A stretch of 63,616 nt of DNA, the filler included, from Hausera hauseri (lineage: Eukaryota): NCBI GenBank assembly GCA_046269625.1. It is 12 parts of 12 records of this genome, joined end to end, with 100 filler letters (N's around TTAATTAATTAA, not from the genome) between each part and the next. Parts side by side here need not be neighbours in the genome. Positions count along the whole stretch, not along the records: positions 25,452 to 29,572 come from JBJURY010748320.1; 11 more parts are not named here. One strand, written 5' to 3'. This document shows positions 1 through 58,410 of this stretch, in pieces. Made by a program: the position numbers and the translations under genes. Under the pieces are notes generated by a model, which had not been told where the DNA came from, did no database searches, and was given only the letters and a program-made list of their open reading frames with translations. Numbering within the stretch: the first letter of the stretch is position 1; each line of letters opens with the position of its first letter.

Positions 1-145
1 TGGGTTAGCTAGAAAAGCTGCAAGAAGGGTACCTAAAGAAATAAAATGGACTAAATTATTTGAAAAAGAGGAAAATGAAAAGGGAACTAATAGGATAGAG
101 GACATTATACGAAATATCTCCCCGAACAAAGGAAACGAATCCAAT

Positions 146-1900
146 TGGTTAATCAACTTGCTGACGATAACGATGCTAGTAAAGCAGATAGGAGCAGTCA
201 CTATATACGACTGTGACAAATTCAAGGTGGATCAGAAATATTCGTTGATGGATTTAGAAACATGTGAAGACGAGAGGCAGAAAAGAAATATATACTATAC
301 CAACAACGTGAATTAATCGCAATGGATGCGACAGAATGCATGATACGGAGATCCCGCAGCGTATTTCATTGTAGTAACATGTACGGGCATTCGTCAATAA
401 TTAAACCAACCACACCATTAATCCCAATGAACGTGGATAGACAACACTGTTTAGGAGCCCGGTTAACCGGTAAAGTAGTTTGGGACGGCATGGAATTAGA
501 AGCCCAAGAAGGAAAGATTATTAGAGCCTACAAAGTGGCAATAGGAAAATTAAACATGCACACCGGTTATTGTGTCGGAGCAGAATATGACACTGGAAAG
601 GGAAAGGAAGGAGGAATAGTAGTCGTGGATTTTTACGAAACTGAAAATCAAAAATGTCACATCCAAAATGGTGCTTGTACGTTCCGAAGTTCAGTCATTG
701 TATGGAACCCACCTTCCAAGAGAGATTGCAATTTCATCAAAATCAAAGAATTAAAGTTTAACGAGACAACCGAAAAACGTTATTCAAATAAATTACACCA
801 ATACCAGATCAAGGGAAGACGTAATAGAACATTCCACACCAACGACATTGATATCAGATGCGCATGGGTTAAAATTTATTAGAAAGGATATGCTAACACG
901 CTGCGATGTAGTTATGTATGCCACTAATTACAAAGCGTTCTTCGTAGAAGAAAACCGAAATTAACATGGAGACGTACGATTTGAAGACACAAGGTGTGCG
1001 GATCGAGGATTACCTGAAAAATCGAGACGAATATTTCTATTATAACGGAAAGACCGGAATAGCAGAGCTATACCACAAAATGATAACGAATGACTGCAGA
1101 TTAGACACTGAAGTCATGAGAACCAAACTAGCCTTAATTTATGCCAACCCAGAATTGGTATCATAAATTATACCGATGAAGGAAGATGTTTTTGGGCGAG
1201 TTACCGAAGAAGTCCTATTAACTTACGAATGCGAAAAAAGGAACGTACCGATCAACGTGGAAGAAAAGAGATGCATGCAAGAATTACCGGTCATCTATGA
1301 GAATATGCCGAGACTAGCGATGCCACTCACCAGGGTATTACTTGCAAACTCGACTGAACCAACTATACTGAAGGAATGCAAAACGAGCCTAGGTGAACCA
1401 ATGTTTCGACGTAGCGAAACCGACTGGATAAGTTTACTTAATGGAGGCGCAGCCGTAGCCCCTAGTAAACTAACTGGGACAAATCTAATCAAAGGATTAT
1501 CAGAAGATAAGTTTGAGAACACGGCCAATAAAGGAATTTATAGACCAAAAGACATAGAAGCTTTTAGACAATTCTTAGCATTTCCGCGACAAAGAACTTA
1601 TGAACTGAACAGGGCTATGTCGATGGTAATAGAAGACACAGGCTTTAAAGCAAAATGGAAATCGTTACTTGGCGCTAATCACTATCAAAGAGTAACTTCA
1701 GAAATATTGTATAAGATTTGAGGAAGGTTTCTGATTTTCGGATAAGCTGCATCCGTATTCCTAGCCATTTACTTTTTAGTACAGTTAATTAAAGCAGTAA
1801 TTCAAGCCGTCATAAATGAATATGAAATTTTCAGTTTTAACTGGATTTTCCTGCAAAATTTTGACTGCAATTATAACACCTTTTGGAAAAATACTTAAGG
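146..1900 (+). pseudogene. Chuvirus-like (class III/gB-type) envelope glycoprotein domain, copy 1
   Basis: Signal-like WLINLLTITMLVKQIGA|V (146-196), then YDC..YSLMDLETC..QQ..ECMIRRSRSVFHC..GHSSII, a Cys-rich ectodomain, C..ELPV and C-terminal KI(W)GRFLIFG.AAS.FLAIYFLVQLIKAVI TM. This is the motif pattern of chuvirus-type glycoproteins, recognised by eye. Confidence 0.8.
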
Positions 1901-2495
1901 CCTACGAGGAAAATCGGTGGAAAAATGACGTAGAACGCCACGTCGGGTATTATAATCGCAAACGACGAGAGAGGCCCTCGATTTCGTATAGACGTAAAAA
2001 TAAGAAAACAATAATGAGGAAGGATGATTCATATGATGATCAACGCACCATTGCCCATCATGCCACCAACTGCACCAATATGCGAAGACTGCGACCGGAA
2101 ATCAGTCATGTCATATAAGTCCGAAATCTACCGCAAGCCCATTGATTATGAAGACCCTTATGAGAAAACCAAACAATATGGAGTACTACAAAAAATGAAT
2201 GTCATTAACCAAGGCTTAACAGAAAACGACCACGGGATATTGCACTCGAAAAGGATACCTCGTAACATAGAGTCAAAATCCACGATCTGGGAGAACCCAA
2301 AACTGCGTTCGATCCCAGGTCCACTACCTCAAGAATCGCTCATTGTCAGTTGTGTCAACGAAATAACGAATAATAATTTATACCCAAACGAGGAATTAAG
2401 GCAATTAAGGGAAAACATCATTTCATCACCAGAAATAACGATAAATGGACACAGTCTCGACTATAAAATAGTCAAAGAAGGTAGTAGAAGGGAGG

Positions 2496-4521
2496 CCTTT
2501 CGCTAAAATATACATCGAAGACTGGGAAGTATACGCCTTAATCTACACGGGATCAGAAAAGTCGTTTATAAAATATGAACCTATACCAACCACATTGCGG
2601 AACCAGCTATGCCCACCATTATCATCAGACCCAGGTAGCGTAGGAGCGTTCGGACAAATATCGAAACCAAAATTTAAGTGGACCCCTACCATTTATATGA
2701 TGGGCCAAGCACTTCAACACGAATTTGCGATAATGGACTAGCTAACAGATGATGTAGTAGTGGGTTGTGACATTAAAACAGATACCAGGCATGGCAATTG
2801 ATGTGCATGACGGAAAGTTAATTGAGCTCGAACCAATTAAAGGGACAAAAATAAAAAAGGAAAGGAAATCGAGCGAAGTATGGATACCGGTAGACGAAGA
2901 CATTCCCCCAAGAAACGAAATGATAATTTTCGCACAGCTTCGTCAAGACGAAGATCTGCCAGTATATTTTGGACCTCAAGAGAATATTGATCCAAATCTC
3001 ATTTAGCAATATCCTATGTAGAGTAGAGACGGAACGCATACCTATCAGATTGGTGAACACTGCACCAATCCCCGCACGATTGCACGCTAATACTACTTTG
3101 GGTCACACCTGCAGAGTATCGGCAATAACAATAGAGGAAAAACCATATAAATACGCTGAATTTCCACCCCACGTTAAAACCAAATTTTCTCCTGAGGCGT
3201 ATTGCAAGTTCTACGAATTATTATGCAAATACAGTTCGATAATCGCACAAAATGAGGAAGACATAGGTAGAGCAAAAGCCCTGAGATTAACAATCCCATT
3301 AAGAAAGAAACCTGGCTCAAATGACGAAATCGATCTAGAACAGAAAATGCCCAAGTGGTACCCACCTCCTCATTCATTGAGACCAGAAATAACTAGAGGT
3401 AGAGCGGATGTTAAAGGCCGATATAATTCGACCAAGCTACCGATCATGTTACTCACCTCTACTTATGGTCAAAAAGAAAAAAAAGCGAACCAGTTCTAAG
3501 ATACCCTGATTTTAACCTACCATTCATCATCAAAACAGATGCGAGTAAAGAAGGTATAGGATATGAATTAGCTCAGAAACGAGAAGATGAAGAATTAGAA
3601 CATCCAATAGCCTATGGGGGACGCTCATTAAAGAAAGCAGAAAAGAATTATTCGGTTACTGAATTAGAAACGTTAGCCGTAAAGGAAGCACTACGACACT
3701 TTAATGTATATGTCTATGGACAAGATTATAATAGTGACCGATCACAAAGCAGTTACGACGTTGAAAGGACGAGCTAATAAACCAACATGTAGATTAAACC
3801 GTTGGAGAGGAAATCTCGCGATATAACATTGAATTCCAATACAAACCATGTATTAAACACGTCGACGCCGACGCATTATCGAAGTTAAAGACAAAAACCA
3901 GTGGGATTATCACAGGGAAGAAAACGCAACTCGAACAAATAATTGAACGTCAAAGAATCTTAACCTTGGATAAAACAATCAGAATCACCGCAGAACAAGC
4001 TAAAAATAAGGTTATTCAGCAAATTGTTGAATTTGCACAAAACGGCAAAATGTCCAAAGGACGACAATTGAAGAAGCATCTACAGAGACACGGACATAAA
4101 TATCGCGCATCGGACCAAGACAATATCCTATATTACGAACGAAATGGAAGACTAATAGTTATTCCAAAAGGATTACGCATCGAAGTATTCATGGCCGAAC
4201 ATGATTCATACTTAGCCGGACACATGTCTTGGAAAAAGACATTGGAGAGGATATTAAAAAAATACTATTGGCCAAGCATTTATATCGATGTAAAGAATTG
4301 GGTAGGTGCTTGCAAAGTTTGCGCGACAAAGTAAAAGAAAACGAAAGGCTGCGTAGCAGAATTAAAACCCATAAACGTGCCAGATAGGCCCATGCAAGCT
4401 ATGTCTATGGATATAGTGGGACCTTTACCTAAAACTCACAAAAGTAACAGATATATTCTAACATGCGTGGATCGGTTAACGCATTTCGTTGAACTGGTGG
4501 CACTATTAGATCAAAAGGCAG
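2496..4521 (+). pseudogene. pol: pol remnant: aspartic protease, RNase H, integrase; RT core deleted near 3485
   Basis: SPLLMVKKK (RT N-terminus) is joined directly to EPVLRYPDF (start of the RNase H linker), with no YxDD between them. Integrase is cut by the contig end. Confidence 0.88.
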
Positions 4522-16324: not shown

Positions 16325-19300
16325 TGTTGTGGAGGAGTTAATTTCCCGAAATTTATTTTGTAGAGCATTAAATCATTAAATCGCCCATTCGAGTTAAATT
16401 GGAGGAGTCGCAAAGGCGAGAAACAAATGAAATTTCATGGATCCACTAAGCAAGGCTAAGAGGTGTCAATATCAGTCGTACCTATCGAACTTTCCGCCGT
16501 TCCTCCCGTCTTACAATCGTTCATTGTCACAAATTGCCCGAATACACTACATAGTCCAAGTCCTTTAAGCCTGCTGCTTCAATATTTCACAATATTTTTA
16601 CGAGTTCACACGCTCCAGTTGCATAACCCCATCGTGAACTCCAACCAGAATGCCGCAACATGGTCGAAGCTGAACTTTTGCGGCTTGAACAAGAGGATAC
16701 AATCTGACAGCCTATCTCTCTCTGGGCTTCAGCATTTCACGTAGTACCAAAAAGATGGCACGTTTCGGCTTTTGCGGAGATTATTGTAGGCTTAACGTCT
16801 TAACTACACAAGACAGTTATCCTCTCCATATGATGTTTGACATTATCCGGAAATTAAATGGTAGCAACATATTTTGCACCGCGAACTTGCACAAAGCTTA
16901 TTATCAGATTCCAGTCGCTGTGGAAGATATTCAGAAAACCGCGATAACAACGCCATTTGGTCTCTTCTAGTATCTCTACATGCCCTTTGGATTACGCAAT
17001 GCTGCCCAAACATTCCAGCGGCATATAAACTCTGTGGTTGCAGATTTTGCTTTTGAATTCCCGTATATCGACGACATACTGATAGCTTCCGGAGGCGAAG
17101 ATCAACGCACGGAAAACAAACGACCATAATCTCCAAGTGAATTGGAGTAAATCTCATTTCTTCTCGCAGTCTGTCACATTCTTGGGATATGTCATTTAAG
17201 CACAAGAGCACGCACCACTTCCTGAGCGATTACATTCATTTCGCAACATTGCTTGTCCATCGACCGTGATAGAACTGCGCAGCTTCCTAGGAATGGTAAC
17301 TTTTGCCACAAGTACATTCCTAACTGTTCACATTTCACCGCGAATCTCTCTGCCCTAGCTTCTGGCCGAAAACAACATAACATTCAAAAGACGGATTCCT
17401 CAACGAGTGATTTTAACACTCTAAAGTCACAACTACAGGATCTTAGAATCACCCATACAAAAAAGGACACACCAATGTATGTATCCATTGACGCATCTAA
17501 AATAGCTGCAGGTGCAGTTGTACATCAGATGAACAACGAAATTCAAAAGCCATTAGAATTCTGGAGCTATAAGTTCTCTAAAACCGAAACGCGTTACTCG
17601 ACTCTTGATAGAGAGTTGATTCCAATTTTTCTAGCCATCAAACATTTTCAACACTTGCTGATTGGCCGTTCTTTCACAATCCAAACAGGCCATAAGCCAT
17701 TGACATATATGTTTCAAATGCGTAACCCTTCTCCACGCCAAAAGGGCAGATTTCCCTTATCTCTCAATTTACTTTTAATATTCTACATATCCCAGGCGAT
17801 AAAACCTTATGGCCAATCTCTGTGTCGTCAATCGATTTCCATTGGCACTTCTCCAAAATCCATTGTCTCCATCCGACATTTCACATTTTAAGAATACGGA
17901 AAACATAGAAGGTATTTTCTTTGATACTACACTGTCGGGAACTATATGGTCATATGTTTTACGCGAGCAAGTCTTTGATCACATCCAAAATCTTCACCAT
18001 CACGGTAGTTCTTCTTCGCACCAAAATAATCTGGCCGGCCATGCGTAGAGACGTAAAACACTGGGTTTCTCATTGCTCTGAATGCCAAAATCCCAAACTT
18101 AGCAACATATTAAGCCGCCGTTATATCATTTCTTAACAACGTCGCGTTTCGACACTGTCTATATTGACCTCGTTGGCTGTCGGCCACCTAACTGAGGATT
18201 CACTTATTTTCTCACCATGCTTGACATATCAGCAAGATGGCCAGATGTCATATCACTCCCTAATATCGAAGCAGATACCGCAGCTAATGCCTTCATCCTC
18301 ACATAAGTCAGCTGTTTCGGAACACCAAAATATACTTCCGATCAAAGAAGCCAATTTGAATTTACACTATTTAAAGCGCTAGGCACTCGTTTGGGGATTG
18401 AACACATCCACACGTCGTCATATCATCTTCAGGCCAACGGAGCTTTAGAACGGTTTCACAATACCTTTAAAGCTTCGTTAAAGATTCTCGCAGACAATAA
18501 CCATAAGTGACTTGACATAATCCCATACGTTTTACTTCGTTGGAAAAATACATCAAGTTCATAGATCAGTCACACTCCAGCTCGGGTTCTATTCGGTACT
18601 TTACTTTGTCTTGACAAGGTTGAAACACCAAATAACACAACGGAGCGTGACATAGAGGCAGCAAGACAACTTTTAGAATCACTGGACAAAGATAAATTTT
18701 TCCTTACAACAAACAATCGTAAAGAATTCATAACACTGAATCTGTTCACAGTGAAACTTGTTTTTCTAAAAAGCCGAACAAAGAGGGGTTTACAGCCAAC
18801 GTATACTGGACCATATAGAGTTTTAGAATGGCAGTGACATACCGTCAAAATACTGAAAGTAATGAAANNNNNNNNNNAAATAACTTTGGTTCAATTAACT
18901 AATATAAAACCAGCCTTCATAATACATGACGAACCCGAAACTATAGAGCAGCCAATCAACGAGCTCTCATTCCACAAACGTTTGTTAAATTTAAACATAC
19001 CATCCCCATCAGGCATAAACACCCGCGAAATTATCAATCAGTATAGTCATAAGCAAAACTTACCGGCGACCCACACAATTTTCATTCCAACATCCTTTTT
19101 CTCTTCTTCGCCTTTAAATACACCTTATGTTTTAGGCTTCACATCATTCACATCCTTCGCCACAGTCGTTGACGAAATGTCCACAAACCCACTAATTGTC
19201 CACGTGGATACATTGGAACAATTTTCACAACTTACACATGACAGTCACCAACCATACCACTTCTTCTCATCCAACAGACTTAACTTGCGACTGGCAGAAA

Positions 19301-21779: not shown

Positions 21780-24205
21780 AAGAAGGCAAAAAAGTATCAT
21801 CATCAGTCATACCTACCGTACTTTCCACCGGCCCTTCTGCCTTACAATCTTTTATCCCCACAAAATGCGCGAATACACTCCAAAAGTCCAAAACCTTTGA
21901 GCCTACAGCTTCAACATTCCAGAACATCCGTACGAGTTCACACGCTCCAGTAGTACAACGCCGTCGCGAACTCCAACCAGAACGTCGCAACATGGTCGAA
22001 GATGAATTCTTGCAATTCGAACGAGAAGGCACAAGCTGACGTTCTACCTCCGCTTGGGCTTCACCACTTCATATGGTACCAAAAATACGGCACACTTCGG
22101 CCGTGCGGAGATTATCGTTGACTTAACGCTGTAACTACACCAGACAGTTACCTCCTTCGCATGATCTCTTACATTTTCCGTATATTAGATGGTAGCAACT
22201 TATTTTCCACCGTGGACCTGTTGAAAGCTTACTATCAAATTCAAGTCGCTCCGGAAGATATTCGGAAGACCGCTATAAAAACGCCATTTGGCCTCTTCGA
22301 ATATTTCTACATGCCGTTTGGACTGCGCAACGCTGCCCTAATATTCCAGCGTCATATAGACTCTGCTACTAAATCTGCCTTTCGCATTCCCACATATCGA
22401 CGACACACTGATAGCTTCCGGAGACGAAGACCAACACAGGGAACACATGTGCACTCTTTATAAGCGCCTCCACGACCACAATCTCCAAGCAAATTGGAGT
22501 AAATCTCGTTTCTGTGCTCACTCCATCACATTCTCAGGACATGTCATTTCAGCGCAAGGACACTCCATTGCTTGAGTAATTACATTCAATTTGCAACATT
22601 GCTTGTCCATCGACCGTGACAAAACTGCGCAGCTTCCTAGGAATGGTTATCTTTTTCCACAAGTACATTCCTAACTATTGACATTTTACCGCAAATCTTT
22701 CTGCCCTAGCTTCTGGCTTAAATCGACATAAAATTCAGTGGACGGATTTCTTAACGACTGATTTTAACCCACTGAAGTCACAACTCAGAATCTTAGAATT
22801 CTCGCATGCCCAAAAAGGGTGCACCATTGTACTTGTCAACAGACGCATCTACAATAGCGGCAGGCGCAGTTCTACATCAACTGAACAACGAAACACTTGA
22901 GCCACTAGAATTCTGGAGCTAAGTTCTTTAAAACCGAAACGCGTTGCTCGACTTTTGATAGAAAGACACTTTCAATTTTTCTCACCATCAAACATTTTCA
23001 GCACATGCTGATAGGAAATTCTTTCACAATCCAAACCCACCATAGGCAATTGGTATATATTCTACAAATGCGTAACCCTTTCCCGCACCAAAAGAATCAA
23101 ACTTCGTTTATCTCCAAATTCAATTTTAATATTCTGCATACGTCAGGTCAAAAAATGTTGTAGGCGATTTTATGTCACATTATGTGTCGTCAATCGATTT
23201 TCTCCCGGTAATCTCTCAGGAAATTCTTCGTCAAAATCCGCCGTCCTCATCCGATATCGCACATTTCAAGAATATTGATACCACACTGTCGGGAACTTTA
23301 CGGCCTATATTGTCAGAAGCTTTATGAAAACAGTCCTTTGATCACATCAATAATCTTCACCATCCCGGTAGTTCAAACACTACCGTCTTCTTCACACCAA
23401 AATAATCTGGTCAGCCATGTGTCGAGACGTAAAACACTGGGTTTCTCATTGTATCCCATGCCAAAAATTCAAAACTTCATGGCACATTAAACCACCGTTA
23501 TATCATTTCCCAACGACGTCACGTTTCGACACTGTCCATATCGATCTCGTCGGTCCCCTGCCACGTAACCGAGGATTCACTTACTTACCATGCTTGACAG
23601 ATCAACAAGATGGCCAGAAGTCATACCACTTTATAATATCGAAACTGATACCATAGCTAAAGCTTTCATCCTCACATGGATCAGCCGCTTCGGAACACCA
23701 AAACATCTTATCTTCGATCAAGGAAGTCAATTTGAATCCTCCCTTTTCAAAGCGCTAGCCATTCGTTTAGGGATCGAACACATCCACACCTCGCCATATT
23801 ATTCCCAAGTCAACGGAGCCTTGGAACGATTTCACCACACCTTCAAAGCTTTATTAAAGATTCTCGCAGACAATAACGATCAGTTGTTAGACGTAATGCC
23901 ATACGTTTTACTCGGAGAAATACGCCAGGTTCATCGACTAATCACACCCCAACCCAAGCTTTATTCGGAACGTCACTCCGACTGCTTTCAGACCTGGTGG
24001 AAATGACAAGCGTTACGACGAAGCACGAAATAGAAGCAGCGAGAAACCATTTTGAATCATTGAACGAAGATAAATTTTGCCGTACAACAAACAATCATAA
24101 AGAATTTGTACTACAGCACCTGTTCACATCGAAATTCGTTTTTCTAAATAATCAAACAAAAACGGGTTTACAACCAACTTACACGGGGCCATATAAAGTT
24201 TCCTG
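21780..24205 (+). mobile_element. Decayed Ty3/gypsy pol, same family as 16325-19680
   Basis: Colinear with 16465-18825: STVDLLKAYYQI..TPFGLFEYFYMPFGLRNAA, HIDLVGPLP, DQGSQFES, NGALERFHHT, LQPTYTGPYKV. Confidence 0.9.
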
Positions 24206-25451: not shown

Positions 25452-28400
25452 GTCAATTGTTCCATGATTGCAAATTCGTATCGAAATGTTTGCCCAACTA
25501 ATTGGACTTCTGGGTTCCATTTAAACATTGGTTTTAACATTTGGCCAACAGCTCCTGTACTACCTGGATCCTTCGTAGACGGCGGGTATAACTGTCCTCT
25601 TAGCGTTTGAGGTATTGAATCATTTTTATGTAAGATATCTCGGAACCCGTATCGACTAACGCATAAACTTCCCAATTCTCGATAATGATTTTGACGAAGG
25701 GTCTTCCTTCTACCACGGTTCCAAAACAGTTTGATGCTACTTTCGAACGTTTAGTCACTGATATTTTGTGTTCGTTTATTTGCACTTCTGGGGCGGATAC
25801 TGTTTTTCGATAACTGTCTCAACTCTTCGTTTGGATATAATTCGTTGTTTTCTACGTGCAATTCTTCCATTTCATGAGTGCTAATTAGCTGCTCCCGATT
25901 GTTAGTATGCAGTTCAGTGTGTTGGAAGGTTTTTAGTCTTGCGTTGTCCCAAACCGTCGATCTGGTTTCTATATTTTTAGGTTCTGTTGGTGGATACAAT
26001 ATTTTGGGATCATCCGCAGACTGTTGATAACACATTTTCCGTAAAATTCCGTATCGTTTCGTTCCTTCTTAAGGATCCTCTAGATTAATTGTTCTTTTGT
26101 AGATTTCCGTTTGGTATGAACTCATGGATCGTCTGTCACAATCTTCATAGAATAGAGCGGTATGAGGTAACATGGGCAATGGGTACTTAACGATAGAGTA
26201 CATCTTATGTCTATTTATTCCTGAAAGTACTTCTCCTCATTTAGGCTCATCATTATCTGAATTATTTCTTTTTGTAATAGATTTTGTAAATTTTCGCTTT
26301 CGTAAGAATATAGGCCTTTTCCTTCGTTTACGATTATGATATCCGACATGACGTTCTAAGTCCGATTTCCACCTACTCTCTTCGTATGCCTTTAAGAATT
26401 TCCCAAAGGGCGTTATGACTGCAGTCAGTATTCTGCATAAAAATCCGGTTAGTGTAAATATTTCGTATTTGTTTATTACTGCTTAGATGACTGCCTTAAC
26501 CATTTGTATCAGAAAATATATCGCTAAAAATCCTGACGCGGCTTGTCCAAAAATTAAAAATCTTCCCCAAATTTTGTAGAGTATTTCTGTTGTTACTCTC
26601 TAATAGTTGTTCACTCCAAGTAATGATTCCCATTTAGCCTGATATCGTGTATCATCTACTACAAACGCCATAGCTCGGTTTAGCTTATGTGTTCATTGTC
26701 GTGGGAAAGCGAGAAATTGTCGGAAGGCCACAATTTCCTTCGGCCTGTATATACCTTTAGACGAGATGTCTTGAAATTTATCGTCTGTAATCCATTTCGC
26801 GAGATTCGTTCCTATCAACTTGTTGGGAGCGGCGGTAATATCTCCATTAGATAAACTAACCCAGTCTGTTTCACTACGCCTGAACATTGGCTCTCCTAAA
26901 CTTGCTTTACAATCCTTAAGAATGGTCGGTTGTGTCGCATTATCCAACAACACTCTCGTCAATGGTGTAGCTAATCTTGGAGTATTCTGATAAATAACAG
27001 GAAGTTCCTGGATACAACGTTTCTCTTCTACGTTAATGGGAATTTCTCTTTTTTCACATTCATAGGTTAGTAATACTTCGCCCGTAACTCGACCGAAAAT
27101 TCCTTCTCTCATGGGAATTATTGGAGAAGCTAATTCCGGGTTTGCATATATACGAGCCATTTTAGTTCTCATGATTTCTGTATCCAATTTGCAGTCATTC
27201 ATTATCATTTTGTGATATAATTCCGTTATTCCGACTTGCCCTTTGTAGTAAAAGTAATAGTCTCGATTCTTCAGGTTATCTTCAATGCGGACATCCTGTG
27301 TTTCCAGCTTATAGGTTTTCGCACTTATTTTCGTTTCTGCGGCAAAAAACGCCTCATCGTTCGTAGCAAACATCACTACATCACAGCGAGACATCATCTC
27401 TTTTTTAATAAATTTCAATCCATGCTGATCCGAAATTAATATAGTAGGTGTAGAGTGTTCTGATACATCCTTGCGTGTCCTCGAGTTAGTTTTTGATTTG
27501 TCCACATATCGTTTTCCTGTAGTCTCATTGAACTTTAGTTCTTTAATTTTAATAAAATTACAATTTCTACCAGAGGAAGGTTCCCTAATTATAACCGAGC
27601 TTCTTAAAGCACAGGTTCCGTCTTTTAAATGGCATTTCTGATTCTCAGTATATAACTTAGTGACACTGTGGAAGATTACCACTTGTGATCGCATTTCTGA
27701 TTCGTAGAAATCCACAACCACCACGTTTGATTCCAATCCTTTTCCGGTATAGTATTCTGCTCAATTACAATGTCCGCTATGCATATCTAATCTTCCGGTT
27801 ACTACTTTGTATGCCCTGATTATCTTTCCTGGCTGAATCTCCAATTGCACACTGTCCCATTGTATTCCCCCAGTTTCCTTGGCTTGCTTGCAGTGTTGAC
27901 GTTCTAAGTTCATTGGAATTAATGGAGTTGTTGGTTTAATTATAGATGAGCGTCCATGAACCAACCCACAGTGAAAAATACTACGCGATCGTCTCAGCAT
28001 ACATTCCATTCCATCTAGCGATGTCAATTCTTGCTGCTGATATAGGAAATAATTTTTCTTTTGTCTCCAACTTGTGTGGTCTGGCATCTTCGCATACTTC
28101 TAGATCCATAAAAGAATATCTCTGTCCTAGCTTAAACTTATCGCAATCGTAGACAGTTACAGCGCCTATATGCTTAGTTATCATCATCAAGGTGAGTAAG
28201 CTAATTAGCCAATTCGATTTGTTCTTCCGGCATCCAACTTCCGCCGTTGTTAAATTACGTAACACGTCGTCGAGTTTATTGCTGTTTCGTTTGTCTTCTT
28301 CTTTATCAAATAGTATGGACCAATTTACTTCGCAGGGCAATCTTTTTGCAGCTTTTCGTGCTATGCTTATAGCTCTATTGATTTCGCTCTCTCGATTAGG

Positions 28401-29300
28401 GTTTTGCTTGATAGCTAAGAATAATAGCACTTTTCTCAGTACTTCATTGATGTTTTCTACCATGATTTTATCAATTACTGCTTCACCATTTAAGGTACTT
28501 TTTGACCGCTTCAAACTTGAGCTTCTCATCCTTTTTGGCTGCATCGAAAATTATCTTTTCTTTATCGTCTAATACATCACCTCGTAGGCTTGAATAATTT
28601 ACAATTCGTATTAGATTCTTCATTAAATCGTTTAATTCTTCATTATTTGTGCTAAAAGTCGGGATAGACATTTGTCTCAATTCTCTAATCAATTCTCCGT
28701 TGTAGTGTGCCTCTTCTCGCGTTTTCTTAGGCCTTCCTACTGGACGTTTCGGCTTTTGGCCTCTGGCGGTTATTTCACTCAGTGGTACTAAATTTATATC
28801 ATATTGTTCCTTATCTTCATCCGTTTGTAAGTACTCAAAATACATTGCAGCATCTCAAACTCCCATAATTTGTCCTACGCATTGTTCCGTTTTAGCCTTA
28901 CATGTGGCTTTTTCTTTTGTCTGTTCGTTAGCTATTATTGCTAATATCCGGTTTGTTTCGTGGGAAATAATCCCGACATCTATTAGCTGTTCTAGGTCCT
29001 TCCACCATTGTTTAACAACCATTCTCTTACATCTTTTACATAGGAATATGTAGTTAATTCACATTCTTTTTCATCCATCCACTCGGATGATACCATTACT
29101 TTCATCGCTACCTCAGGTGTAGTCCTTAAACTTTTAGCGTATTTCCTTATCAAAAGTTTCGGCACCGTGCTATAAATTGTGTTCTCACTAGATAATTTAG
29201 TTAAGGTTGGAATAAGCTGTCTTAATTTATTTTCAGTAATATTTTCGTTAATTAGTTCAATCAAATCTTTATCAGTTAGCGCTGAATCTAGGAGCATCTC
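25452..29300 (-). mobile_element. Env-bearing Ty3/gypsy element, copy 2 (AT-hook region, glycoprotein, linker, protease)
   Basis: Colinear with 1-2750. KRPVGRPKK at 28723-28749, signal WLISLLTLMMITKHIGA from 28211, 347-aa open glycoprotein stretch 26693-27736, TM at about 26480-26570, ALVDTGSE with DTGS at 25642-25653. Confidence 0.88.
26390..28211 (-). pseudogene. Chuvirus-like envelope glycoprotein domain, copy 2 (best preserved)
   Basis: AVTVYDCDK..YSFMDLEVC..ECMLRRSRSIFHCGLVHGRSSII..C..RCIQELPV..KIWGRFLIFGQAASGFLAIYFLIQMVKAVI.AVINKYEIFTLTGFLCRILTAVI. Few lesions. Confidence 0.8.
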
Positions 29301-29571
29301 TGTGGTGCCGCGGATATAGGCATCACCACAATCCTTGGAAATTTATTCGTCACTCGTTCAATCAATAGTTTTGCCCTTCGTTAAACCACCGTCTTCTGCA
29401 AACGTCAGCACACTTCAGTTTACACCGGGAGTACAAAAGACTTCACGAAATAAAAGCCTAATCACGAATTAAATTGTATTTCCTGCCGAAATTACCCCCA
29501 GTTCATACGATTTCAAGAATCCAACAAATTGAAAATACCAACTATCAACTAACGACATACAGACCCGTACA
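29301..29571 (+). repeat. Candidate LTR of an unrelated element inserted into copy 2
   Basis: Homology to copy 3 stops here. Segment starts TGTGG, contains AATAAA near 29449 and ends GTACA at the contig edge. Confidence 0.35.
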
Positions 29572-29672
29572 ANNNNNNNNNNNNNNNNNNNNNNNNNNNN
29601 NNNNNNNNNNNNNNNNTTAATTAATTAANNNNNNNNNNNNNNNNNNNNNNNNNNNNNNNNNNNNNNNNNNNN

Positions 29673-32488: not shown

Positions 32489-34719
32489 AATTATAGTACA
32501 GTAACTAGTTTTGCCACTGTCAAACAATACTGGCTTCACAATGCGCGTGATAGCAATTTATAATGCGGTATTATAAAGTGCCAAATGATGGACGTAGTAG
32601 TGTGTCGTTAACAAGCATAATATGACGTTAGTATGGACAGTGTCTAGTTTGATTCAGTAGAAAATAAAGGACATTTAAATTAATTTGGTGTCGTAATTAA
32701 CAATTCAAATGCTTCTTTGAATTTTAAATATGCTTGGAAAACATTTGAGAAATTCTAGTTAATTATACATCAAATTATGCCTATGTACGTTGTGATATAA
32801 TTTAGACATAAGAATCGTAACTACACAATATGTCCAATTTCAGAACATTTTTGAATCGGCAAGAATAAAAGTAAAAGTAAGCCAATATTGAAGGATGAAC
32901 CGAATAAATGCTGGTTGAAAAAGATCGCTGAATCTGATAGAATGTGTTAGATGATACCAATATAGATAAAATTGATATAAAATGACTGAAAGTAAAACTC
33001 CAAATGGTTATCAAAATTTTCAATAGAATTATAAAATAGTTTTGAAATTATTGAATTAAATAGACTCGAACTTTTAAATGGTTCTAGAAACAATAATTAG
33101 TCATAAAATCAATTGTAACAATTCAAATTCTCAGAGAATATTTCAAAAATTAAAAAATCAATCAGACAAATATAATATTCAAATTCATTAAAAACATCAA
33201 TTGCTTTATTGATCAATGTTTTCCAACAGTGAATTCAAATGATGTTATTCAAAACAGCTTTAAATAAGAAATCAATAGGTAGTTGAACAAAGAGAGCTAA
33301 CAATGCAAGTACTAAATAAAAAAATCAATAATAACCACCAAATCAGCACTAAAAATCAAAGAGATAATATCAAAACGCGAGGAAAATTATAAACAGATTT
33401 AACGAATGATCCTTATGTTGTGAGATAGTAACAATTGTTTCGGGATTGTAACAACAAAATAGAATTCGTGTCAGACGATGGATTTTTTTTGTATATATCC
33501 AGCGAATTCATTATAAGCGACTATTTTTCAGTTGACTTCTTATTATCGGATCCCTGAATGAGAAATAATTACGAATAGCAAGTAACACGGTGAAATATGA
33601 TTGTGACAAGATGTTACGGTTCCCAGTGTTAACAATTCGTTTCTGCATAATCTCGACTGAATAGATCGTGAAAATTGTCATACGTGATAATGATTGTTGT
33701 GAGGATTAATGAATCTTTCTTTGTATGTTCACAATTAGATTTTTTTGCACATAATTAGATTTTTGTCTAATATATAAATTCTTCATCAAAGAGACAGTTT
33801 CAGAAATAAGAAAAGTGTTGTAAAGGTGTTATAAAATAGATTCGCTACTATCACCGATTTTTGGTTTCGAACACTCGGTCTAACTCTTACGCGCTGTGGA
33901 GGAAACGTCTATCTATGTGGGTTCATTTTATTTATTTTCTTGCTTATTTTAGACCTTAATTGTCAGTTTAGCAAGTGTTTTTTTGTGTAATTTTATTAAC
34001 CGGATCTTTTCTTGTGAGCTCTAAAATAGTCTGAATGACAAAATCAGTTTGCATGTTCGAGGTTACTTGCGGACTATTCGTTGAATTGCCGCGGTAGCTC
34101 GAATTCCTCAAATAAATAAATTTGTTGGTAAACTACATTTGATTGAATCTTAATTTTGTTTAACGAGCTCATTTTAATTTATTGTTTTGTTGGCAATACC
34201 GTTGCTCTCGAGAATAACAAGTTGAGATTGGTTTGGAAGTAACATAGAATAACCTTTTTGTAAACATTTATATTTAGATATAAAATAGTCGAGCCCTAAT
34301 ATTAGCTTAAGGGTTAATCGTTCTTTTAATTCATTCGAACAAATAGTTATCGCCGGGGGAAATAAAGGAACATTGATCAATAAGAGTGAACCACTCTCAT
34401 AAAACAAAAACTGTAAAATTGCTTGGGGTGTTCTCTGGTTGACAATTAAATTAGTAAATTTTCAATTAAAATTTATTTATACTTGCATTAACATTAATAA
34501 TAATAACTTATTGATAAAAAATTACGTTACAATCTGTTTTTACGTTTTATCTAACCAACAGAATAATCGTAATTGTCTCACAAAAATTCAGTCAATTTTG
34601 GTAATTTACTCTAACAACANNNNNNNNNNNNNNNNNNNNNNNNNNNNNNNNNNNNNNNNNNNNTTAATTAATTAANNNNNNNNNNNNNNNNNNNNNNNNN
34701 NNNNNNNNNNNNNNNNNNN

Positions 34720-37545
34720 GTGGTTAAGACGTTGGAATATTGCGCGAAGGTGTTCCTCGTGTTGTTTGGCCGAAGATGAAACGACTAGAATATCATCGAC
34801 AAAAGGGTGTGCAAACGGGAAATCTGAAAGAATTGAATCAATGTGCCGCTGAAAAGTTTGTGCGGCATTCCGCACACCGAATGGCATAAACAGGTATTCA
34901 TAGAGACCAAAAGGGGTAGTGACAGCAGTTTTTTCTATGTCTTCGGGTGCCACCGGTATTTGGTGGTGTGCTTTAGCTAAATCAATGGTCGAATAAATGG
35001 TGGTTGAATTAAGATGATGCAAGATATCCTTGATGAGTGGTATAGGGTACACATCCATGATAGTCAAGTTGTTCAGCTGTCGGTAGTCACCGCATGGTCT
35101 AAAATAACCGTCCTTTTTTGTACAACGTGTAAAGGTGATGACCAAGGAGATTTGGAACGGCGTACTATGCTGGAACGTTCTAGTTCAAGAAATTCGGCTT
35201 CTACGGCATGCCTACGATGAAGTGACAGAGGTCATACCTTTTGGTGTATTGATCGTTGATGCTGTGTAACTATATGGTGTAAAGTACTGTTTGCGGGAAT
35301 AAACGCACGATCTTTTTTAAGTACGAGTGGACATGAGGAGTTGACGAATTATTGTAAAGTTGTAGGTAACTGTGAGAGATTCGGTGAAAGTGGTAAAACG
35401 GCGTGAGTAGTAGCGGATGCAATGTGTGAGTTGTTTGGTAATGTGCAGTCAAGTGGTATTTGGTGTAAGATGGTCGAATTTAAAATGGTGTTGGGTGAAG
35501 TGATTTCGTCGAATGGATTAACATTGGTGGCCGTGCCACAGTTATCGACATCGAACCTCAATCGAATATCAATATTATTATTTAAAAATTTACGAATTGA
35601 ATTATTGTTATGAAAATTCGAATTATTCATTGATTATTTCAAGATTGAGCTCCGCGCCCCTGTTTACTGCGCTGTAGTCAAAATGCTATTGACATGTCCA
35701 GAAATGTCGCCAGTAGTGCCGTTCCTCAAACATCGCTGACTGCCGTCAACCAATAAATTATAATGTGATAAAAAATCGGATCCAAGAATTGCAGTCTTGA
35801 CGTTAGCGACTGTGAACGTCCAGTGGAAAGGTGAAGGAAATTTTTGTAATATGAAAGATAATTTAGCCATTCTAGAAATGTGCAGCGGTTGATCTGAAGC
35901 GGTGTATAAAGACTTCATTCTAAATGGTGAATTTTGTACTGGAAAAGTTTGTGGTAATAAGGAAATCGCTGCACCTGTATCAATGAGGAAATCAACAGAT
36001 AGTGTTGTAGGAGCGGTGATTGCAGCCTTTACAGTAGAGACAGCAAAAGAGGCATGTTGGCGTGCAGAAAGTGAAGTAGTGCCTTTGCCAGTGTTTGCTG
36101 TGACTTCTGGAGGCGAACTTAGTTTTTTTAAAATGGTGAATTAGGACGACTATTATAAGGAAAGGTAGTACGTCCGTCGTTCGCACCTGATTTGAAAGTG
36201 CAGCCTGGAATGCATTTACGAGCTTAGTTTTTGAACCTTGCGTGGTACATGCAAACAACGGTGTCCAAGGAAAAACTCTCGTTATAAAATTTGCAACCTA
36301 GGCAGCACTTCTGAGCACCAGTGTTAAATCTGCTGTGGTAATAGGAGATTGACGAACGCGCAGGCGATGGTGAGCGGTTTCTAGACGCAGAACGAACGCG
36401 GTCAGCGACAAAACCCCCTCGTCGGGACAGAGACAATTCGTTTAATTTAGTATTAATATTGTTGATTGTTGCATGTATTGCAATATCTTCAGCACGTAGC
36501 TGATTAAGCTGTTGTTCTATAGATGTATTATTGGTTTGAATATCGTTAGCGGCAACTGCTGCTGAAACAACTGGTGCAGAATTTACGTGTAGGATGTCAT
36601 GTGTCCTATCATCTGATTCGGCCAATTTCTCAAGAGGCGTGGAGTCCCCCACCACGGTAAGTAAGGCCCGTGAGGAAATAGTGGGGCAGTAGTCTGGATT
36701 GCGTTCTTTAGTGACGCCGAGTGTGTGTAGATGTGCTAAAGAGGTGAGTAAGAATTCTGATGGTCGCTGAGTGCCTATAACGTTGTCGTGGACGAAACAT
36801 TGTATGATTGTGTCCATGGAAGGTTCTGTGATCTTAAGGACTGCGTTGAAAAGTTGGGAATATGGGTCAGGAAGTTCAAAGATTTCGATGATGTTATGAA
36901 TGCGTGTTTTGATATTATTAGGCAGTAAAAGGAGAAGGTTATGTGCTTTAGTTAAGGAGTCAGTAATGTTATTTGTTTGTAGCCATAGTTGATCGAATTG
37001 TAACCAAGTTTTTTAGAGCCTTGGTTGTCAATAAAGAATTCGGCGCAGTTAGGAAAAGAAGCGGAAGAGGTAATGGATGGGAGGTTGCTAGCATGGGTAG
37101 AAATGGGTTTTTGAAGAAATATGACAGATTTTGGTTTTGTGGTGGTTTTATCCATGGTGTCTATGGTTGGCGAAGAGTTCATGCCACCACGGTTATGGAA
37201 ATTTATGTGGAGACAATTGTGGTTTAAAAAAGATGGCAGGGTTCCGATGAGGTGTATTATAGAACCGTTATGTGTGAGATAAAAATCGGAAGAGGTAAGT
37301 AAGAAAGAAATAAAGGTATGAAGGGTTGAAATATGTAAATGTGATGTAATGAGTGTGTATTTGTGTGTATTATTTAGGAAAACAAAAATAGAAAGAGGGG
37401 AAGTAGTGTGTCTGGGGTCGTGCTGCAGGGCCCACGTGAAAGGTGCCGTCTGACCGACCAGTGCAGGGCTGACGGTCGAGACCTCAGCCCCGTAGCGGCG
37501 GGCCCCAAATTGCAGGGTGACTGAGTTTCCCCTCAAAGGTGCGGC
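34720..37545 (-). mobile_element. Decayed Ty3/gypsy element, 5' half (gag, PR, RT)
   Basis: Gag-like QRPSEFL..PLEKLAE..C.YH.RF..A.KC, protease FLIDTGAAISL, ILGSDFLSHY, RT RPCGDYRQLN..TPFGLYEY..FVDDILV. Confidence 0.88.
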
Positions 37546-37549
37546 CATT

Positions 37550-39199
37550 TTTGATCGGCATTTCTGAATTGTCATCATGACATCTCTAGGCTTAACTGCT
37601 CCGCGATAGTTCATAACAATCGATATGAATTTCCTTTTATTTAAGTCGGGTTTAGTCATTTGGTGATCTTTTGAGGAGACACTTTTTATAAGTTGTTCGA
37701 CCTATGGACTGGCACGCGTAAATTGTTTTTCGTGCAGAAGTGGAGAATGTCTCATTATTGTGTGGTGTATCCTTGGATACGATATTGAATTTGTATGTAC
37801 TTCTTTCAAACCAGAATTCGTCGTTGTTTCAAATCGCGCAGATGCTGTAGATGAGCTAATCATTAGAGACATTATTCGATTGAAACTAGAATAATATGGT
37901 AAATTCCTGAACAATAGATATTTACAAACGTCATAAAGAGCTTCATTCTTAAAAGGTATAGACNNNNNNNNNNGTATAGACAAATCACGCGTACCTAGTG
38001 TTGTATGACTATGGAATACGCTATTGTATGCTTTAACAATCGCCGTAGACATTATCGGGCTGGGTAATAATGCCAATTGTATTCGGTCTGTTTTGGGGTA
38101 ATCAACGGCTAATTGCAGCATTATTAACACACCAACTCTAGACCCCGTACCACCATCCATATTGCTAATGACGATAAATGCATCCAAATTATTCGTCATT
38201 TCAGCTAGTTTAAATATCGGCGGTGGAAACAATCTTATTAATCGTACACCAGAATTGAGACTTCGTCGAGCAAAATTGTTACCAGAATCTTCACAGTTAG
38301 TAATCATCGACTCTCCACTAGAAATATTTCTACATGCACCAGTCTTAACATTATTTATGCATGTGGGCTCTGAATCGACACGTATCGCTCTTGGATTCAA
38401 CTTACAGTGGTTTATTGTTTGGGATAATACTGTCGTTCAATCAGGTTCTTCAGCTAAATCATTATCTGTTAATATTTTTAGTCCATGTGGATCAATAGTG
38501 TGTTCAAGACATAATGATTTCCACAGTGCACTGGCGCACTGCACACCAAACCGACCGATATATATAAAAACGACTTTAGACGGCATGCATTTATAAAGCA
38601 ATGGTTGTGTAATGACAGTTGAAGGAAATGTTACCTGGCACCAAGTGTGTATCCTTCGACCACCAATTTCGCAGCGTTCTGGACTCAACGAAGCAATGGC
38701 TGCCAATAAATCGTAATTAATCACCGGTGAAGCTTCCAATTTTGGTTGCCAATCATCCTGCGGAGATGCCGGTAGTGAAATTAGAAATTGCTTTTCTTTT
38801 TTAGGCAACTCCATATAATCTATTGGCTGGGTTCGGTTAGCAAACATACATTGCATCGATTCTTTTGGATCACCCTCTGACGATGGAATTGAATATTTCG
38901 GGAAAACATCATTTGCTTTTATGCAAGCCAACAAGGCAGCTGCACTTGATTTCAATAGAACTTGAACTCCACAAAAACCTGGTAGGTAAATAAATTTAGC
39001 TTCTTTGTCAAACTCTGAAAAGATTTTCCAACTTTAATTTGTATGTAATGTCATCATGAATTCGTTTAGGCATGTTTAATACAATCAGTGAATTTGGAAT
39101 AGCTTGTAACGTGTCGGTTCCCTCTACAACGTCTTCAAGCGTGTATGTTGATCCTTCACGCATAAGACTTTGATGGATTTTACGTGAGTCTTTTAACAT
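37550..39199 (-). pseudogene. Highly divergent alpha-tubulin-like gene with about 200-aa N-terminal extension, disrupted and truncated by the gypsy element
   Basis: From 38586: KVVFIYIGRFGVQCASALWKSLCLEHTIDPHG, PRAIRVDSEPT, EDSGNNFAR, DGGTGS, LAVDYPK, STAIVKAYNSV..HTTL, NEALYDVC, SSTASARF, SYPRIH, YRGAVKPRDV. Colinear with alpha-tubulin to about residue 335. In-frame stops at 38437-38439 and 37702-37704; frameshift near 39010. Confidence 0.82.
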
Positions 39200-54776: not shown

Positions 54777-57700
54777 TGCTTCCGGGATCCTTAATAGATG
54801 GTAGATATAACTGTCCCTTTAACGTTTGAGGAATTGAGTCGTTTTTGATGTAAGGCATCTCGGAACCGGTGTCGATTATGGCATAAACTTCCCAATCTTC
54901 ATTAGTAATTTTGGCGAAGGGTCTCCCTTCAATTACTGTTCCAAAACAATTTGATGCAACTTTTGGGCGCTTCGCTGCCAATATCTTGTGACCGTTTATC
55001 CTGATTTCTGGAGAGGATACTATGTTTTCTATTAGTTGTCTTCCCAATTATGGATATAATTTATTGTTTTCGACGTTTGATTCTTCATGAGTACTAATTT
55101 CATGAGTACAAATTAATGGTTCTCGTTTGTTTGTATACGTTTCTATATCTTGGATTCCCCCAGACAGGTGGTCCGGTTTCTATGTTTAGAGGTTCTCTTG
55201 AAGAATATAGAATTCTAGGATCATTCATAGGCTGTCGGTAGCACAGTTTCCGTAGTATTCCATATCGTTTTGTCCCTTCATAAGTGTCTTCCATTTTAAC
55301 TGTTCTCTTGTAGATTTCTGTCTGATATGAACTCATTGATCGCTTGTCCCCGTCTTTGTAGACTAGAGGAAAGGGGGTAGCATGGGCAATGGTGCTTTGA
55401 CGATGGAATATGTCTTATGTCGATTTGTTTTTAAGGGGGCTTCTCCTCCCTTAGGCTCGTCCTTGTCCAAATTATTTCTTCGCGTCTTAGATTTCGAGAG
55501 ATTCTGAGTGTACAAAAATAGTTCACCCTTTCCGTTTTCAATTATGGTAACCAACTTGACGTTCTACGTCCGATTTCCATCTGCTTTCTTCGTATGCCTT
55601 TAAAATCTTTCCAAAGGGTGTGATGATTGCAGTCAAAATCTTACATGAAAATTCAGTCAATGCATTTATTACTGCTTGGATGACTACCTTAATTAGTTGG
55701 ATTAAGAAATATGTCGATAAAATTCCGGATGCAGCTTGTCCGAAAATTAAAAATCTTCCCCAAATTTTATAGAGTATTTCCGTGGTTACTCGTTGGTAAT
55801 GGTTTACTCAGAGCAAGTATTCCCATTTAGCTTGATATCGAGTACCGTCTACTACTGAGGCCATGGCTCGATTCAATTCGTGCATTCACAGACGCGGGAA
55901 GGCAATCAATTTTCTGAAAGCTTCCATTTCCTTTGGTCTTTAAATTCCTTTTGACGAAATGTCCTGGAATTTATCATCCGTGATTCCTTTTACGAGATTG
56001 TTTCCCGTTAACTTAATTAAAGCTGCAGTAATGCTTCCGTTTGGCAAACTTACCCAATCTGTTTCGCTACGTCTAAACATCGGTTCTCCTAAGCTTGCCT
56101 AACAATTCTTAAGGATCGTTAACTGGGTCGCGTTATCTAACAGTACTCTAGTATGTGGCATGGCTAGCCGGAGAATATTTTGGTATATAACCTGAAGTTC
56201 TTGTATACACCATTTTTCTTCGACATTTATCGATACATCCTTTTTTTCACATTCGTAAGTCAATAAAACCTTACCGGTAACTTGCCCGAAAATTCCTTCT
56301 CTCATAGGAATTATTGGTGATGATAAGTCCGGATTAGCATAAATAAGAGCTAGTTTTGTTCTCATAATTTCCATGTCTAACTTACAATCATTCGTTATAA
56401 TTTTGTGGTATAGTTCGGTTACTCCAACTTGTCTTTTGTAGTAAAAATAATCGTCTCGATTTTTCAAGTAATCTTCAATACGAATATCCTGCGTTTCGAG
56501 TTGATAAGTCTTTGCATTTATTTCCGTTTCTGCGACGAAGAATGCTTCATAATTGGTGGCAAACATCACGACCTCGCAACGTGAAATCATTTCCTTTTTA
56601 ATAAATTTCAGCCCGTGTGTATTAGAAATCAGTATCGTGGGGGTAGAATGCTCCGCCATGTCTTCGCATGTTCTTTAGTTACCGTCGAATTTATCCATAT
56701 ACCGCTTCCCGGTGGTTTCATTGAATTTCAGTACCTTAATTTTGATAAAATTACAGTTTCTTCGGAAGGGAAGTTCCCATATTATAAGAAAACTTCTAAA
56801 AGCACACATTCCATATTGTAAGTGGCATTTTTATTTACAGTATATAGTTTAGTTACACTGTGAAACATAACTTTCTGTACTCGAATCTCTGATTCATAGA
56901 AATCTACGACTACGACGTTCGATTCCAGTGCCTTTCCGGTGTCCTACTCTGCTCCATTACAGTTCTCGTTATACATATCTAGCATCCCAGCTACTACTTT
57001 ATAATCTGTATTTATCTTTTCTGGTTGCATTTCCAGTTTCAAACTATCCCATTCTAATCTCCCTGTTTCTTTTACCTATTTGCAGTGCTGACGTTCTAAG
57101 CTCATAGGAATTAAGGGAATCATTGGTTTGATTATTTACGAATGTCCATTCATTAGTCCGCAGTGGAAAACGCTATGTGATCGCCGTAAAATACACTCCA
57201 TTCCATCACGTAATATCAATTCGTGTTGTTGGCATAGGAAATAACTTTATTCTTTTGTTTCTAGTTTATGCAATCTAGTATTTTCACACGCCTCTAGATC
57301 CATTAAAGAGCATATCTGTTTAAGTTTAAATCTATCGTAGTCACCCATCTGTTTTATCAACGTCATCAATGTTAGCAACCTAATTAACCAATTCGATTCA
57401 TGTCTCCGGTTACTGTTATTCGTTGTCGTCAGATTTCGTAACATGTCTTCGAATCGGCTACCATTATGGGATTGTTTATGTTGTTCCTTATCGAACAATT
57501 TTGACCAGTTTACTTCTTGGGGCAATTTCTTAGCCGCTCTTCGTGCCAAGCTTGTAGCTCTGTTAAATTTATTTTCTCGACTGGAATTCGTTTTGATAGC
57601 TAAGTACAGAAGTACTTTTTGCAGTTCTTCTATCGTGTTTTCCACCATAATTTTCTCGGTCACTGTTTTATCGGTTAGATTAATTTTTGATAGCTTAAAA

Positions 57701-58410
57701 CGCGAATTTCTTATTCTTCTAGCTGCGTTAAATGTCGCTTTCTCTTTTTCGTCTAATACGTAACCATGGAGGTTTGACTAATTTATGATGCGTATTAGAT
57801 TTTTCTTGTCTTCGTCTGTTTGTAAATATTCAAAATACATTGCGGCGTCTCGGACTCCCATGATTTATCCTATGCATTGTTTTCCCTTAGCCTTACGTGT
57901 GGCTTCTTCTTTAGTCTGATCAATAGCTATTGTTACCACTATTCGGTTTGTTTCGCCGGGTGTAATCCCAACGTCTATTAACTTCTCTAAACCATCTAGT
58001 ATTCTACCTCTAAAGTAGAAAGTAGTTTAGTATATTTGTTCCATAATTATTTATCAACCATTTTTTGCATCCCTCACATAGGAATATGTGGTTAACTCAC
58101 ATTCTTTCTTATCCATCCACTCGCACAATACTTTTACTTTCGTCGTTAACTCAGGTTTAGCTTTTAAGATTTTAGCATATTTCCTTATCAAAAGTTTCGG
58201 CACCGCGCTGTAAAGTGTGTTCTCACAAGATAATTTTGTTAGAGTCGGAATAAGTTGTTTTAACTTATTTTCACGAATATTTGCGCTAATTAGTTTAATT
58301 AAATCTTTTTCAGTTAACGCTGAATCCAGGAGCATCTCTGTTAGTTTTATGGTCTTAACCGACATTTCCTGTCTACTGTGGATTCTCAGCAGTGGTTCGG
58401 TGACATTTCT
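54777..58410 (-). mobile_element. Env-bearing Ty3/gypsy element, copy 3
   Basis: Colinear with copy 2 (MLLDSALT..., signal WLIRLLTLMTLIKQMG from 57390, glycoprotein, TM, linker). Open frame RQLIENIVSSPEI...AIIDTGSE with DTGS at 54862-54873. AT-hook segment deleted near 57805. Confidence 0.88.
55600..57390 (-). pseudogene. Chuvirus-like envelope glycoprotein domain, copy 3
   Basis: ECILRRSHSVFHCGLMNGHS, RCEVVMFATNY, LTYECEK..CIQELQV, GEPMFRRSETDW, KIWGRFLIFGQAASG. Confidence 0.78.

Follow-up and report, generated by a model that had tools for sequence, protein, structure and literature searches.

The window analysed here, 63,616 nucleotides of the genome of Hausera hauseri (assembly GCA_046269625.1), contains three copies of a Ty3/gypsy element in which an envelope glycoprotein (env) lies in frame upstream of the aspartic protease (PR). 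We consider it likely that these copies represent a dead and truncated, probably Burro-like, gag-env-pol family, that a class III fusogen is situated in frame between accessory domains and PR, and that the intact element was translated into one polyprotein. This reading draws on the domain order, the shared codon phase, selection on the env-PR linker, the fold class of the glycoprotein and relatives which are encoded as single proteins.

Three copies of one family

The window consists of short contigs chained by N spacers. The copies occur on three separate contigs of less than 5 kb, each of which is cut inside the element: copy 1 at 1-4521 (plus strand), copy 2 at 25452-29572 (minus strand) and copy 3 at 54777-59515 (minus strand). 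Copies 1 and 2 share 67.3% nucleotide identity (134-1976 versus 28223-26313), while copies 2 and 3 share 72.0% (25560-28621 versus 54779-57805) and, further upstream, 75.3% (28797-29303 versus 57793-58341), with homology ending at 29303. As synonymous sites are near saturation (pS 0.61-0.94), the copies are old subfamilies and not recent copies of one element. An earlier note on this DNA had called them three independent copies, which holds for their separate contigs and has to be specified as to their age. All three are dead, being broken, diverged and truncated.

In a sequencing run that may be from the source sample (X1), 14,556 contigs match copy 2, 791 of them at 99% identity or more and 6057 below 90%. 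They span all 30 of its 30 bins; at the joints, these are single contigs, which are not informative. The counts point to a large, diverged, high-copy family.

Contigs of three other runs match the stretch just past copy 2 (29301-29572) with 0-2 differences, a closeness not seen for the element itself; this stretch would be host sequence or a conserved repeat of its own.

The glycoprotein is a class III fusogen

Four open reading frames (ORFs) of the window match the Pfam family PF24664 (Monjiviricetes_fusion), and the read-through translation of copy 2 does so with an E-value of 4.9e-48. A profile of 75 env sequences, compared with the PDB, retrieves herpesvirus gB (E 5e-5), which accounts for 38 of the 39 PDB sequences listed. 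The AlphaFold2 model of copy 2, computed from 543 residues with X at stops and without the first ~40 ectodomain residues, has a pLDDT of 86.6, a pTM of 0.62 and a central helix of 48 residues. With Foldseek, glycoproteins of chu-like viruses come first in BFVD (E 6.3e-26, TM-scores of 0.43-0.55 for the top six) and gB of HSV-1 comes first in the PDB (E 1.1e-7, TM-score 0.32, rmsd 16 Å). The likeness is one of fold, with 15-19% identity to the top viral glycoprotein matches and, for gB, ~10% identity and TM-scores of only ~0.3. The fold class is secure, and the low TM-scores reflect differing domain placement. The chuvirus-like envelope glycoprotein proposed in the earlier note, and the expected similarity to chuvirus G and herpes gB, are supported. 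Unlike the viral glycoproteins, which are products of a free gene, the fusogen is embedded in a polyprotein here.

One codon phase from the signal through the protease

The shared order of signal, Cys-rich ectodomain, transmembrane (TM) anchor, linker and protease was found with its motifs in all three copies. In copy 2, an internal signal-peptide-like stretch (28161..28214, with predicted cleavage after Ala 28161-28163) is followed by the PF24664 ectodomain (26567..28160), the TM anchor (26474..26566), a tail or linker of ~250 codons in the phase of env and PR (25720..26470) and PR itself (25452..25719, DTGS at 25642-25653), which is cut by the contig end. The equivalent series occupies 1..2760 in copy 1 (plus strand, YTGS at 2544-2555). 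In copy 3 it is located within 54777..58341 (minus strand, DTGS at 54862-54873), together with a helical domain, a ubiquitin-like (Ubl) remnant and a Bcl-2-like segment upstream. In copies 1, 2 and 3, respectively, the signal-like NWLI.LLT stands at 143, 28214 and 57393 and GRFLIFG, with the TM anchor, at 1722, 26566 and 55759. A D(T)GS protease had been assigned to all three copies; DTGS is present in copy 2 (25653) and copy 3 (54873), but the YTGS of copy 1 lacks the catalytic Asp. Read-through from the signal into the ectodomain (AVT.YDC) is seen in copies 1 (194) and 2 (28163), while copy 3 lacks the junction.

Several statements on the reading frame could be reproduced. In copy 2 the glycoprotein frame (27736) is the same as the linker frame (26035), and 28039-25841 reads with six point stops in 733 codons. 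The lesions of this copy are stops at 27763, 26695 and 26602 in the ectodomain, at 26485 in the TM anchor and at 26239 and 26071 in the linker, besides frameshifts near 28060 and 25800. Copy 1 is open from APLPIMP to ENIISSPEI (ORF 2018-2506) and copy 3 from ENIVSSPEI to DTGS.

The codon phase was evaluated by a three-way alignment of the copies in which stops were counted per phase. A single phase spans the region from the Bcl-2-like segment before the signal through PR. From signal to TM anchor, the shared phase has 3, 4 and 9 stops in 584 codons, the other two phases 36-65. In the linker there are 2, 2 and 3 stops in 250 codons as compared to 14-21 in the other phases, some of which are alignment artefacts beside indels, and in PR there is none in any copy as compared to 3-7. 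None of the stops occurs in all three copies, and the sharing of phase between env and PR exceeds chance. A conserved frameshift between env and PR was not found either, frameshifts being private to each copy: between the TM anchor and the catalytic motif, copy 1 is shifted near 1832, 2039 and 2457, copy 2 has one frameshift near 25800, and those of copy 3 are located near 55510, 55369 and 55155, with none in common.

For the linker, dN/dS is 0.12 between copies 2 and 3 and 0.18 between copies 1 and 3, the third pair being saturated. Differences between copies 2 and 3 at codon positions 1, 2 and 3 of the linker are 0.22, 0.16 and 0.43, a bias towards the third position, and dN/dS in PR is 0.09 for the same pair. 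The env-PR linker evolved under purifying selection in the phase of env and PR.

Relatives with env and pol in a single protein

A HMMER search over 1.84 billion representatives resulted in 233 env matches at E 0.001, of which the best 150 were used; further searches added more. A word-based search with a window ORF had retrieved no longer env relative among 2641 candidates, while HMMER found them. The set of relatives comprises 24 proteins of more than 1100 residues, the longest having 4844. PR motifs follow env in the same protein in 21 of them, and the full arrangement CCHC-env-PR-RT-IN (RT standing for reverse transcriptase, IN for integrase) is present in 7 of 24. An RT motif was also detected by script in 12 of 24, or in 13 when P0152 is included, which the script mis-bounded and Pfam places correctly. 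Of the three exceptions, P0023 and P0129 terminate within env or directly behind it, and P0091 has env after the integrase. The env-PR linker of the relatives ranges from 134 to 377 residues. Two of them (P0152 and P0155) contain ankyrin, and P0155 has the order Ty3 capsid, CCHC, Bcl-2, env, PR, ankyrin, which is that of Burro. As to the DNA around the relatives, a metagenome scan confirmed none of 192 stretches and a viral scan gave no match.

Several aspartic protease motifs per polyprotein were observed in P0002, P0004, P0012, P0152, P0156 and P0158-P0160, with up to four after env (P0012) and some of the extra motifs after the integrase. Such tandem protease copies might dimerise within one chain.

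These data bear on the possibility that the glycoprotein represents an endogenous viral element (EVE) of its own or an insertion nested in a gypsy element, or that its position is an assembly artefact. The assembly is in fragments, EVEs with chuvirus-like glycoproteins are frequent in animals, and the window has no intact copy. However, order and phase are the same in three copies whose synonymous sites are near saturation, the same order recurs in 21 of 24 long relatives, and related contigs occupy 27-30 of the 30 bins of copy 2 in four sequencing runs. This explanation is largely refuted and we regard it as extremely improbable; the glycoprotein belongs to the element, as the earlier note had supposed.

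The pol region and related elements in the window

That the element is of Ty3/gypsy type is supported by copy 1, which contains PR, the start of RT, RNase H (RH, TDAS at 3535) and IN in gypsy-type form (Integrase_H2C2, E 1.9e-18 in Pfam). As previously described, this copy continues into RH and IN (3472..4521, with the H2C2 finger and the start of the core, cut by the contig end). The RT core is missing though: between 3470 and 3472 the tblastn alignment skips from residue 2506 of P0152 to residue 2740. It is absent from all three copies, while the full order PR-RT-RH-IN is seen in relatives. Between PR and RT, a segment of copy 1 (2996..3301) is common to relatives, matching 11 of them by BLASTP (best E 3e-12). 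A Pfam scan of this segment gave no match; Burro has a dUTPase-like domain at that place. MATH, BIR and ankyrin domains were not detected in the copy fragments scanned by Pfam, these fragments being partial.

An RH-IN tree with 19 rows and no named references places copy 1 in the env-carrying set and apart from three other gypsy elements of the window (100/100). Further gypsy elements, likewise decayed and with no env detected, occur at 16325-18823, 21783-24201, 34672-37012 and 46381-49700, and the three of these which were placed in the tree form a separate group (100/100).

At 11307-14437 (minus strand) an intact ORF of more than 1040 codons codes for a Gag that bears a CCHC knuckle (E 3.4e-6) and is extended by a long helical part; it runs off its contig. 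Its best match is the Gag of P0158 (E 1e-22), and a RING-finger ORF lies upstream (15326-15720, minus strand). Together they may make up the 5′ half of some giant element that is related. The Gag ORF was considered as part of the family of the copies and rejected, as it matches the Gag of the relatives and not the upstream pieces of the copies. Neither the gag contig nor those of copies 2 and 3 showed a long direct repeat.

Upstream region

A helical region with AT-hook had been attributed to all three copies. We find the helical domain in copies 2 and 3, while the AT-hook-like motif GRPKK is found in copy 2 only (28723..28737, minus strand). GRPKK-like motifs also occur upstream of env in P0004, P0005, P0012, P0129, P0152, P0155 and P0156. 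The helical domain of copy 2 (28995..29300, minus strand) forms the left limit of the element in its contig. By BLASTP it corresponds to the post-Gag region of P0161 (540-615, E 1e-6), and also matches P0156 and P0159; matches of the upstream helical domain to the post-Gag region involve P0158, P0159 and P0161, gag itself not being on the three contigs.

A hidden Markov model (HMM) for Ubl was built from four hand-picked slices of relatives. When 1531 window peptides were searched, the pieces from copy 3 (E 0.0012) and copy 2 (E 0.029) ranked first and second; the copy 2 piece is a weak C-terminal remnant at 28924..29001 (minus strand). In the relatives, P0157 (845-900) matches Pfam ubiquitin at E 0.018. 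The degenerate Bcl-2-like helical segment of copy 2 (28320..28502, minus strand) is the best of the 1531 peptides for a likewise hand-picked profile, but only with E 0.63. It has 14-21% identity to the segments of five relatives, a Pfam scan of it gave no match, and it lacks the GGW motif. Five relatives have a W/Y-I/V-x-x-x-GGW motif directly before the signal. For two relatives, Bcl-2 is recognised by Pfam (P0006, E 0.00096; P0155, E 0.0015), and Bcl-xL can be aligned with P0006 (E 0.01). The PDB matches of a joint Bcl-2-like profile are driven by the relatives, not by copy 2. The weak Ubl-like and then Bcl-2-like remnants stand in Burro order in the copies. The sequence WLLNNGG near 29000 was tried as a BH2 motif and discarded, as it aligned poorly; it borders the Ubl remnant.

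Proposed translation as one polyprotein

We infer the processing, the topology and the tethering of the protein from rules for signal peptides and stop-transfer sequences; cleavage by signal peptidase and a cytosolic Pol hanging on the fusogen are consistent with the motifs. Gag and the Ubl/Bcl-2-like part would stay cytosolic, with the Bcl-2-like part remaining anchored via the signal helix. The internal signal would thread the ectodomain into the lumen of the endoplasmic reticulum, and signal peptidase would free the N-terminus of the fusogen. The TM anchor would then stop transfer, leaving PR-RT-RH-IN in the cytosol, tethered to the tail of the fusogen until the element's own PR cuts. Capsid, enzymes and fusogen might thereby be gathered at one membrane, leading to the budding of an enveloped particle.

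Signal and TM topology were judged by hydropathy. The TM anchor of copy 2 reaches 2.23 (Kyte-Doolittle, 19-mer) and corresponds to a helix (482-517) in the model, while the values for the signal-like stretch are modest in the copies (1.2-1.55). The predicted -1 residue for signal peptidase is A, G or S in 16 of the 22 relatives; with Thr, which five others have, the count is 21/22. A single TM pass is favoured because the post-TM segment scores below the TM anchor in 19 of 20 scored relatives, with a tie in P0158.

As an alternative, env and pol might form one open frame in the DNA and yet be expressed separately as a result of splicing, of a promoter inside the element or of premature termination, with Pol normally untethered. 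Retroelements require more Gag than Pol, and the linker varies in length among the relatives as given above. Against this speak the purifying selection on the linker in the phase of env and PR, the joint occurrence of env and PR in one protein in most long relatives, and the position of the signal, which is internal and behind Gag in 7 complete proteins. We consider separate expression unlikely.

Several points weigh against translation of a Burro-like element as one polyprotein. The resulting 1:1:1 ratio of Gag, Env and Pol is unexplained. Copies 2 and 3 have a stop in common inside the ectodomain (26695/55942). Furthermore, all three copies are broken within ~20 nucleotides of each other, ~30 codons into the ectodomain, although by different lesions and in an A-rich tract, and the relatives read through this region. 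The segment after the TM anchor of copy 2 reaches a hydropathy of 1.71, and a second membrane pass is possible. No intact copy, Gag, long terminal repeat (LTR) or RT is linked to the three copies, whose contigs end inside the element. For Bcl-2 and Ubl, the window yields weak matches, which were obtained with hand-picked slices and are to be taken as leads. In the RH-IN tree, copy 1 has a long branch (2.1) and no supported sister, and the env-carrying group of 16 rows also contains two proteins with env after pol. The relatives are only 26-33% identical in env, and their status as one ORF is that of public gene calls. One of them, the env-PR-RT-RH-IN polyprotein P0003 (HBK71150.1), is filed as a protein from a Flavobacteriaceae metagenome-assembled genome with prokaryotic-type annotation; it is likely to be mis-binned animal DNA.

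Relation to known elements

The earlier note implied that this layout was new, which is not the case. In the planarian giant Ty3/gypsy element Burro/GYPSM1, Ubl, BCL2-like, in-frame env and PR are joined in one ORF, with env between gag and pol (Arkhipova & Yushenova 2019, PMC6431247). In Burro, ORF1 has ~5000 residues, the element exceeds 25 kb, the Ubl/SUMO-like domain is upstream of the BCL2-like one, a dUTPase-like domain lies between PR and RT, and MATH, BIR and ankyrin domains occur. As in Burro, env is in frame with the pol region in our copies. Unlike Burro, the copies are fragments, MATH, BIR and ankyrin were not seen in them, the linker has only ~250 codons and the Bcl-2 motif is degenerate. 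The second publication concerns GAG-ENV-POL errantiviruses with an HSV/gB-type ENV before POL, reported from Nematoda, Bryozoa and Platyhelminthes (Chary & Hayashi 2026, PMC13524379). There, nine flatworm elements are listed, with copy numbers of 1-215 in Schmidtea, and a flipped ENV-POL order in nematode endogenous retroviruses is cited. A gB-type class III ENV upstream of pol, with the ectodomain between signal peptide and TM anchor, is common to these elements and our copies; theirs are intact and, in the text consulted, are described by ORF order without a stated shared ENV-POL frame, whereas ours are dead.

The host is probably a flatworm; the hint to this is that the best named match of an intronless ORF on another contig at 30884-32557 (minus strand), coding for an SLC22-like transporter of 557 residues, is slc22a-2 of Schmidtea mediterranea (51%; the one named among 4 matches, 8000 candidates having been scored). 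For comparison, Sacco et al. (in 2022) reportedly found non-canonical endogenous retroviruses with a continuous gag-env-pro-pol ORF, which differ in having nematode hosts. Mosquito BEL/Pao elements with a chuvirus glycoprotein, said to have been described by Dezordi et al. in 2020, carry the same glycoprotein family on an LTR retrotransposon. They differ in that env is reportedly downstream of pol, while it is upstream in the copies; no BEL/Pao-specific Pfam family was found in the copies and relatives scanned.

It is likely that the family works like Burro, and formal membership is likely as well, the comparison being one of architecture and not of sequence. It is possible, though we find it doubtful, that the copies represent a separate gag-env-pol lineage which is convergent with Burro; this would change the family label and not the mechanism. 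GAG-ENV-POL elements are not monophyletic (PMC13524379), no BIR or ankyrin is found between env and PR in the copies, and copy 1 stands without supported sister. On the other hand, the order Ubl-like, Bcl-2-like, env, PR is that of Burro, close env relatives bear Bcl-2 and ankyrin, and a flatworm host would fit.

A second membrane module in the relatives

Eleven relatives extend past the integrase (P0003, P0004, P0014, P0152, P0156-P0160, P0162 and P0163), a position before which the window copies end. Ten of these have a second signal-like hydrophobic stretch, P0160 being the exception, and in most cases an ectodomain containing Cys comes next, and then a stretch rich in Thr and a TM segment. 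A profile of 7 hand-picked post-integrase segments matches the FN3-bearing proteins neogenin (E 0.0018, the best), IGF1R and DCC. In P0162 an immunoglobulin (Ig) domain was detected (E 1.5e-5), while whole-protein Pfam scans at E 0.5 found the fn3 family in none of 9 relatives. The module was not found in the Burro and GAG-ENV-POL literature consulted, no literature search having been aimed at it.

Other features of the window

A GC-rich stretch at 44191-45006, the translation of which resembles a bacterial sulfatase, is perhaps contamination. An integrase-like ORF and its neighbours at 53117-54552 resemble a Maverick/Polinton fragment. Fragments at 37702-39033 (minus strand) resemble an alpha-tubulin gene or pseudogene.

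Implications

Because the headline layout is known, the copies add one more, probably flatworm, family to the Burro-like gag-env-pol elements. What is added here is a selection-based test of translation of the env-PR linker in one frame, the class III fold call and the set of single-protein relatives. We tentatively suggest, as a reading that is rather unlikely to be correct in full, that the lineage is an enveloped agent transmitted from cell to cell or from host to host. The whole particle would be cut from one multi-pass polyprotein. Besides Gag and RT-RH-IN, this would comprise a Bcl-2-like survival factor that is anchored, a class III fusogen, between one and several proteases and, after the integrase, a second type I membrane protein, FN3-like or Ig-like, as attachment protein. 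The pairing of two glycoproteins for entry is seen in relatives and, for the window copies, falls past the ends of the contigs. Should the membrane protein after the integrase serve as an attachment factor, these elements would be retroelements in which attachment and fusion are split.

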